Of a stretch of DNA of 38,040 nucleotides, positions 25,900 through 26,088 are shown piece after piece. The stretch's first letter is position 1, and each line of letters starts with the position of its first letter. The position numbers and the translations under genes are program-made. Source of the stretch: Escherichia phage Louie; the sequence record PQ850616.1, one strand, 5' to 3'. The notes under the pieces are model-generated. The model was not told the origin of the DNA, ran no database searches, and saw only the letters and a list, made by a program, of their open reading frames with translations.

Positions 25900-26088
25900 T
25901 TAACTATCATCAATACATGGCACTTTATTCCAGTCGATATCGTTTTTATTGTAGTCCCACATGTCTTTGTTTTTGTATTTCTCGCTACATCCTAGGCAAA
26001 TGTTGTATGGCCTACCGATAAGGTTTAACGAAATACGTTGCATTTCATTTGATTCAAACATGTATCCACAGAACTGACATTTATGCAT
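25900..26088 (-). CDS. Small zinc-ribbon protein (62 aa), ral-slot
   Basis: CxxC (CQFCG) … CxxC (CLGC); AT-rich codon usage; starts 3 nt after N stop. Confidence 0.55.
   Translation of the reverse strand: MHKCQFCGYMFESNEMQRISLNLIGRPYNICLGCSEKYKNKDMWDYNKNDIDWNKVPCIDDS

Follow-up and report, generated by a model that had tools for sequence, protein, structure and literature searches.

A predicted 62-residue zinc-finger protein encoded in the ral slot of lambdoid phages: a mobile one-gene cassette and candidate counter-defence gene

RESULTS

The gene and its junction with N

The sequence studied here, referred to as the window, is the whole 38,040-nucleotide (nt) stretch of Escherichia phage Louie (PQ850616.1), and our subject is an open reading frame (ORF) of 62 codons located on the minus strand directly behind the antiterminator gene N. 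A preliminary description, made from the letters of the window, had noted here a 62-amino acid (aa) ORF with two CxxC pairs beginning 3 nt past the N stop codon, which both the ORF list and the sequence confirm. The product is predicted to be a Cys4 zinc finger, and for brevity the ORF is called the zinc-finger gene. The features that define it are as follows.

25900..26088, minus strand: 62-aa ORF of the putative Cys4 zinc finger, with an ATG start; a variable one-gene cassette, family PHROG 19863
26092..26424, minus strand: antiterminator N of the lambda type (Pfam N36, E 5e-26; PHROG 271)
26089..26100, minus strand: N/zinc-finger junction GAGGGGTGAGAT, with GAGG inside the end of N, the TGA stop and a 3-nt spacer
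25866..25889, minus strand: small hairpin GCCGCATAGTCGGC with a TTTATTTTT run, directly past the ORF stop, at the 3′ edge of the cassette

At the junction, the TGA stop of N is followed by GAT and then by the ATG of the ORF, while the ribosome-binding GAGG of the latter lies within the last N codons. Junctions of the GAGGTGA type are also seen behind two other N variants (loci L020 and L004), and in the same two loci the zinc-finger gene is followed by an analogous hairpin and T-run. Judging from the arrangement of the junction, translational coupling of N and the ORF is likely. The CxxC pairs of the encoded protein occupy residues 4/7 (C4-x2-C7) and 31/34 (C31-x2-C34). The AT-richness reported for this region is evident in the ORF itself, whose GC content of 0.349 (window, 0.477; N, 0.505) places it among the lowest 0.6% of 189-nt windows across this phage.

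Position in the pL operon

Two elements upstream of N indicate how the gene would be transcribed.

26667..26695, minus strand: pL-like promoter, TTGACT-17-TACTAT, from the promoter scan
26597..26611, minus strand: hairpin GCCCTGAAGAAGGGC of nutL, from the sequence and also picked up in the hairpin scan, which we take to be the boxB of lambda

The pL-like element is the sole promoter-like site upstream of the ORF on the minus strand in a scan of positions 25400-26900, a consensus search that weak promoters may escape, and the terminator scan found no terminator between N and the ORF. With pL alone upstream, no intervening terminator and a ribosome-binding site that extends into the last codons of N, the protein should be a product of the first pL transcript: it would appear at the same time as N, and the lysogen would not make it.

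The slot between N and the PreS segment

Downstream of the gene, the same strand carries the following features.

25799..25846, minus strand: conserved hairpin, an inverted repeat with imperfect 22-nt arms and its core at 25809-25836, directly 5′ of the PreS-like small RNA (sRNA)
25720..25808, minus strand: homologue of the PreS (LPR1) sRNA, 5′ end approximate, ending at a tL2a-type intrinsic terminator
Stem 25729-25746 and T-run 25720-25727, minus strand: tL2a-type terminator, from the terminator scan
24739..25707, minus strand: gene for a 322-aa coiled-coil "TolA" protein, next in the pL operon, similar to Sf6 gp33 (PHROG 1376)

Comparison by blastn with lambda, HK544, HK542, vB_EcoP-683R2 and mEp213 revealed homology that spans N and ends at about position 26086, just beyond the N stop. 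It restarts at 25890-25841. Between phages the distance past the ORF stop varies from 10 to 59 nt, and for lambda, HK542 and HK544 it is 10-22 nt; with lambda, the restart falls at the small hairpin 25866..25889. As the breaks in homology flank the ORF so closely, the variable block is essentially the ORF itself. On the downstream side, window positions 25890-25721 are 96.5% identical over 170 nt (blastn) to lambda 33925-34093, which begins in the last ral codons and extends to ea10. HK544 carries N, ral and then the same flanking segment, and the same flanks enclose a 207-aa Nmad5-domain protein in HK542 and a 156-aa unknown protein in vB_EcoP-683R2. The Nmad5 protein has a predicted role in DNA modification and is a site of mutations that confer escape from Tmn (PMC11846954).

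The contents of the slot were surveyed by means of the conserved hairpin 28-mer, which occurs in at least 120 IMG/VR contigs; the adjacent gene was read in the 94 that had enough sequence. Among the matches listed for these 94 loci, about 31 had Ral in the slot; the 156-aa protein followed with about 16, Nmad5 with about 11, a membrane protein with about 9 and another 62-aa protein with about 8. Some ten further families made up the rest, and hardly any of these has a Pfam match. The interval from N to PreS is thus a hypervariable one-gene hotspot, and the ORF is an accessory cassette of a single gene that moves horizontally among lambdoid phages. Cargoes also seen in the slot (25890-26086 in the window; loci L036-L155) include membrane proteins of 121-149 aa, a 62-aa protein starting MKVKITAS, a 293-aa protein and DUF7446.

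The preliminary description had assigned the gene to the ral slot, and this proved literally correct, for in HK544 ral sits between the same flanks and in lambda the 3′ flank follows ral. Its accompanying picture of ral directly behind N in lambda has to be amended, because N and ral are separated there by orf28 and some 550 bp of the sieB region. By flank homology with lambda and HK544, the ORF lies where ral is found, in the pL operon between N and PreS/tL2a. There is no ral or lar gene in the window and none within 4 kb of the zinc-finger gene in any of the 33 loci retrieved (33/33), which is consistent with the zinc-finger gene and ral being alternatives.

The hairpin downstream of the gene belongs to another element. 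In lambda, LPR1 has been renamed PreS, an sRNA that depends on Hfq and is about 88 nt long before and about 68 nt after processing; it is encoded between ral and ea10, has its 3′ end at tL2a, up-regulates host dnaN and is conserved in sequence in about 2,500 genomes (10.1101/2024.10.31.621285). Measured 88 nt back from the terminator in the window, the sRNA should begin near position 25808, where the 3′ arm of the hairpin has just ended. The segment 25720-25808 is, by its sequence, a PreS homologue, for which expression and Hfq binding are predicted. The hairpin had been given as a 9-bp stem at 25810-25837: the stem, GTGTATTCA/TGAATACAC, is real, perfect and closed by a 10-nt loop, its true coordinates being one base off, at 25809-25836. 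Both this hairpin and the terminator stem are identical in lambda, the conserved flank is present in 2,178 of 5,426 complete E. coli genomes, and Rfam contains no model for either the flanking hairpin or the sRNA. Since the hairpin forms part of the conserved lambda PreS/tL2a segment, it belongs to the PreS locus and is uninformative on the ORF; the suggestion that it is a feature of the gene must be dropped, the region being shared with lambda and more than 2,000 E. coli genomes. Perhaps the hairpin is a processing or boundary structure of the sRNA. Whatever the function of the zinc-finger gene may turn out to be, the hairpin should be read as PreS locus and not as a part of the gene. The "TolA" gene beyond it (PHROG 1376, function label unknown) has no Pfam match and in many lambdoid phages is conserved as the next gene after PreS.

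Predicted fold and conservation of the protein

AlphaFold2 (AF2), supplied with a family alignment of seven sequences, returned a model with a mean predicted local distance difference test score of 86 and a predicted template modelling score of 0.69. The model consists of a CxxC knuckle, a β-hairpin (16-21/27-31) and a helix (32-40) that starts at the second CxxC, with a short C-terminal segment packing back onto the core. The protein is therefore predicted to be a Cys4 treble-clef zinc finger: knuckle and β-hairpin are both there, the second CxxC sits at the N-terminus of the helix, and the four cysteines are invariant throughout the family, relatives of 39-41% identity included. Its earlier designation as a small zinc-binding-type Cys4 protein encoded directly behind N agrees with the Cys pattern and the position, and its designation as a zinc ribbon does not agree with the model. 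The remote-homology and structure-prediction check proposed at the same time yielded a confident fold model and, on its other side, no significant relative of known function.

The residues that remain invariant down to 39% identity (C4, C7, G8, M16, I19, C31, C34, W44, D45, N49, D50, I51 and W53) make up the Cys4 site and a WD-x3-NDI-x-W motif. Conservation extends neither to the fifth cysteine, C58, nor to the lysine-rich helix face, and in distant relatives the helix is acidic. Across the family the isoelectric point ranges from 4.9 to 9.1, and the net charge is near neutral and variable. The varying charge and the unconserved basic face point against a nucleic-acid-binding surface and also against DNA mimicry of the Ocr/ArdA type. 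The protein has no recognisable catalytic residues.

Family, selection and abundance

The gene is not new to the databases: it has a PHROG entry, and two sequenced phages list its product as a hypothetical protein. Its product matches PHROG 19863, whose function label is unknown, over its full length (residues 1-62 of 62, E 5.7e-46), and is 98% identical to mEp213_050 of phage mEp213 and 68% identical to HK225_040 of phage HK225; literature searches for mEp213/HK225 and with peptide strings found no functional study. The 33 copies from the fetched loci, which come from phage records, IMG/VR contigs, metagenomes and genomes, represent 10 distinct nucleotide alleles, and every one of them is intact with exactly 62 codons. 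Between subgroups, the non-synonymous divergence (dN) is 0.12-0.25 with synonymous sites saturated, and the ratio to synonymous divergence (dN/dS) is 0.05-0.21 where dS is computable. Because all copies are intact at 62 aa and dN/dS is this low, the ORF is a genuine gene under strong purifying selection. A few decayed prophage copies exist, showing truncation, a frameshift or a deletion that fuses the gene to the end of the downstream gene (P0002, P0005 and P0010). In P0005, a deletion joins residues 1-50 to the C-terminal end of the 322-aa protein encoded downstream, and PreS would be lost as well.

These data bear on the idea that the gene is a prophage-expressed superinfection-exclusion or defence gene, that is, a moron (an autonomous promoter-gene-terminator unit expressed in the lysogen), or else a non-functional remnant. 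The presence of sieB in the N-ral interval of lambda, the membrane proteins found in the slot of some phages and the existence of truncated or fused copies can all be cited in its favour. However, the one promoter-like site upstream is pL, which lysogens keep repressed, the scan of 25400-26900 giving no promoter of the gene's own; the protein has no membrane segment; and strong purifying selection together with invariant length rules out decay. We regard either possibility as scarcely credible.

The family is small. A word-indexed search of 5.8 billion proteins gave 8 clusters at 90% identity, and an exhaustive hidden Markov model (HMM) search of 1.8 billion representatives gave 10 matches, of which the informative ones are the distant small proteins P0012, P0013 and P0015 and three, long multi-repeat proteins, are presumed to be spurious. 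No viral loci were obtained for the context of P0012. P0013 (132 aa) is a fusion of the zinc finger with an N-terminal domain, whose homologues among early hypothetical proteins of virulent phiEcoM-GJ1-like phages are uninformative. The zinc-finger gene is carried by about 5 of 5,426 complete E. coli genomes and by one of 185,579 species-representative genomes, that of Morganella morganii. The HK225-type allele is commoner, occurring in several hundred contigs of E. coli and Enterobacter. In one genome (L157, NZ_LR536431.1), an intact 62-codon gene at 2513-2701 is left unannotated by RefSeq/PGAP, as a gap between N and "TolA", and in NZ_AP027622.1 and NZ_AP045783.1 N alone is listed beneath the match to the zinc-finger gene. 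The gene thus lacks an annotation in several E. coli genomes of RefSeq, so the family is under-counted in protein databases.

Architecture of the HK225-type loci

A 17-bp direct repeat, CCGCATCAGCGGGTAAC, brackets the gene in HK225-type phages. This repeat itself forms a small hairpin and is present exactly twice per locus, the two copies lying 222 bp apart. The repeat-flanked insertion was located as follows.

L002, 2968-3206: repeat-flanked insertion, HK225-type locus
L003, 4094-4332: the same
L025 and L031, 3968-4206: the same

At 109 of the 112 IMG/VR sites in which CCGCATCAGCGGGTAAC stands beside the downstream gene (see loci L159-L238), the repeat is single and there is no zinc finger, and the remaining 3 of 112 are filled. 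Recombination at linker hairpins and a true target duplication are candidate mechanisms of the insertion. The DNA just upstream of CCGCATCAGCGGGTAAC resembles the leader of the lambda-type N of the window (AAATGGGTCTCCCACCTACCACA..CCAAAGC), and the downstream gene, of 98 aa, has a precomputed Pfam match to Phage_N_antitermin (PF26859) that was not reproduced here. In L025, a promoter-like site is found some 420 nt upstream, and no strong terminator-like site comes before the one that follows the 98-aa gene. Elsewhere the cassette is directly 3′ of N, and this with three N types, namely lambda-type, diverged N36-type and N_peptide-type. The cassette is thus placed either directly 3′ of N or directly 5′ of an N-like gene, and always in the promoter-proximal pL unit.

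Two observations on neighbouring genes may be added. In mEp213 (L001), two N antiterminator genes, one of the lambda type and one of the HK620 type, are annotated in a single pL operon (2537-2869 and 4022-4294), and the zinc-finger gene is located behind the first. In L031, the gene after the cassette (4223-4465) encodes another small Cys-rich protein, of 80 aa (...KCDVCGKACKRREKFYQ...). It appears that small zinc fingers turn up repeatedly in the promoter-proximal region.

DISCUSSION

A candidate counter-defence gene

The position and timing of the zinc-finger gene suggest a role in the first encounter with the host. The protein would be made with N from the first pL transcript, within the first minutes after DNA entry or induction, and would act stoichiometrically, by binding a host protein and neutralising or re-directing it. 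The most plausible role would be counter-defence, for example alleviation of restriction or inhibition of another immune system. The gene is a candidate for such a role because it shares its slot with a validated anti-restriction gene and would be expressed early from pL: Ral is a validated inhibitor of type I restriction-modification (R-M) and has served as a positive control (PMC12373910). The low GC content and the patchy, rare distribution are likewise typical of accessory arms-race genes. We infer that the protein may be an immediate-early binder of a host protein, most plausibly of a defence component, and a functional alternative to Ral, a tentative reading to which we assign a probability of slightly below 0.4.

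Several points weigh against this reading. No significant homology and no experiment ties the gene to any function, and zinc binding follows from the Cys pattern and the model alone. Searches of Pfam, NCBIfam, PADLOC and PDB sequences returned nothing beyond generic sub-threshold zinc-finger noise. Foldseek gave no significant match in the PDB, the best being a Cap5 chain (E 0.15) followed by ribosomal L24e, FYVE and PHD, and nothing significant in BFVD, where the best matches (E 0.009) were uncharacterised phage proteins. Guilt by position is a weak argument, since the majority of the slot's other occupants have no assigned function themselves and since sieB, an exclusion gene, shares the N-ral interval of lambda. 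Nor does the absence of ral from the loci of the gene count as independent evidence in the statistical sense, given the small number of lineages. Finally, the protein is absent from the accessory genes given in the supplementary files of the screen in which Ral was used (PMC12373910).

Binding of a host protein might also serve an end other than counter-defence. The nearest structures, all far below significance, are protein-binding treble clefs (RING, FYVE, the zinc-binding domain of ClpX and the anti-sigma factor CsfB/Gin), which are in keeping with the binding of a host protein in general and also recall a host-takeover or developmental modulator directed at a host machine such as RNA polymerase/sigma, ClpX, Lon/FtsH or the division or replication apparatus. 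Such a protein could tune early development, for instance by stabilising N or by biasing the choice between lysis and lysogeny, as do cIII and Kil, which are encoded in the same operon. However, adjacency to N is common to all cargoes of the hotspot and may reflect the slot alone, and the structural matches fall far short of significance. Moreover, about 97% of otherwise comparable sites, and nearly every lambdoid phage, lack the gene, which is therefore not part of core regulation. On balance, a modulator of this kind is unlikely.

A different origin is suggested by the resemblance of the treble clef to the zinc fingers of HNH nucleases. The pattern CxxCG-x8-(β strand)-x-(β strand)-C-x2-C-helix mirrors that of HNH fingers, and the protein could accordingly be a catalytically dead descendant of such a ββα-metal finger, now a small DNA or RNA binder acting as a regulator or as a blocker of nuclease targets. 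In hhalign, the first knuckle, and only this knuckle, aligns with the HNH protein encoded in the window at 28241-29041 (probability 67%, 13 columns); Foldseek matches include, besides Cap5 (we presume that the matched chain is its HNH part), Hpy99I, endonuclease VII and a phage HNH protein; and this phage has several HNH genes. Yet none of these matches is significant, and Pfam HNH models give no match. The HNH catalytic residues are absent, a manual alignment placing Q17/R18 and S35 at the His and metal-ligand positions, and the zinc-finger family has no conserved His. The basic helix is also not conserved in distant relatives, and the charge is near neutral. Descent from an HNH finger is possible, and nuclease activity of the protein, to judge from its residues, is not expected; a present role as a nucleic-acid binder of this descent seems improbable. 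As for the HNH-endonuclease-like genes of the phage, at least two lie in its early regions: one (22694-23161, minus strand) stands between a RecT-like and a Mu-Gam-like gene, and the other (28241-29041, plus strand) has the motif CxxC...HVDH...CxxC and occupies the position expected for a replication initiator.

Returning to counter-defence, it is tempting to go further and see in the zinc-finger gene a new immediate-early counter-defence family, a treble clef co-translated with N that inactivates a restriction enzyme or another immune protein of the host and has repeatedly displaced Ral as a 200-bp cassette within a compact anti-defence hotspot. Taken with all its parts, this is doubtful. If such a family exists, the other cargoes of the N-to-PreS interval, about 15 unknowns, may be counter-defence genes as well. 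Were the inference from position right, the protein would be a new and very small inhibitor of bacterial defence, and the interval would amount to a catalogue of one-gene counter-defence cassettes: Ral, Nmad5, the zinc finger and about a dozen unknowns. As it stands, the gene is an ordinary uncharacterised phage accessory gene in a well-defined context.

Comparison with known systems

PHROG 19863, mEp213_050 and HK225_040 belong to the same family as the 62-aa protein and bring with them only the names "hypothetical" and "uncharacterised". The PreS of lambda and the segment downstream of the gene in the window share their position, before the next gene after the slot, as well as a GC-rich stem and a 3′ U-run.

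Lar (RalR) of the Rac prophage, which according to King and Murray in 1995 reportedly alleviates type I restriction, resembles the 62-aa protein in being a small prophage protein with a CxFCG...CxGC arrangement. The zinc finger might thus be a very distant member of the Lar family that acts on type I R-M enzymes: the sizes are close (62 versus 64 aa), both are encoded in prophage early regions, hhalign aligns both Cys pairs over 30 columns, and one of 13 family members reaches Lar_restr_allev (PF14354) at E 0.041. However, the hhalign probability is only 15%, with a Lar alignment that is shallow, and the Pfam match falls far short of the 28.6-bit threshold, Lar itself scoring 53.5 bits. The AF2 topologies also differ, since the model of Lar is a three-stranded zinc ribbon (E17-22, E25-30 and E36-40) with a long C-terminal helix (H43-58), whereas that of the 62-aa protein has two strands (E16-21 and E27-31) and a helix (H32-40) that starts from C31/C34 and is followed by the WD-x3-NDI-x-W tail, and so departs from the zinc-ribbon topology. 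Membership of the Lar family is highly improbable. RalR is named in databases as the endodeoxyribonuclease toxin of a type I toxin-antitoxin system, and nothing suggests toxicity or nuclease activity for the 62-aa protein.

Homology with Ral was considered and rejected. At E <= 10, the Ral profile PF11058 matches none of the 13 family members (0/13), lambda Ral itself giving E 1.6e-48, and the hhalign probability is 0.6%, in keeping with the original remark that the sequence is unrelated to Ral. The likeness between the two is one of circumstance: both occupy the slot from the end of N to PreS/tL2a as early accessory genes of the pL operon, both are small (66 aa for Ral versus 62 aa), and both have four cysteines. 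The differences lie in the protein and in its coupling to N. The cysteines of Ral are spaced C-x5-C-x2-C-x4-C, and its sequence has no similarity to that of the 62-aa protein; moreover, ral of lambda sits behind the N-proximal region and needs read-through, whereas the zinc-finger gene is fused to the N cistron.
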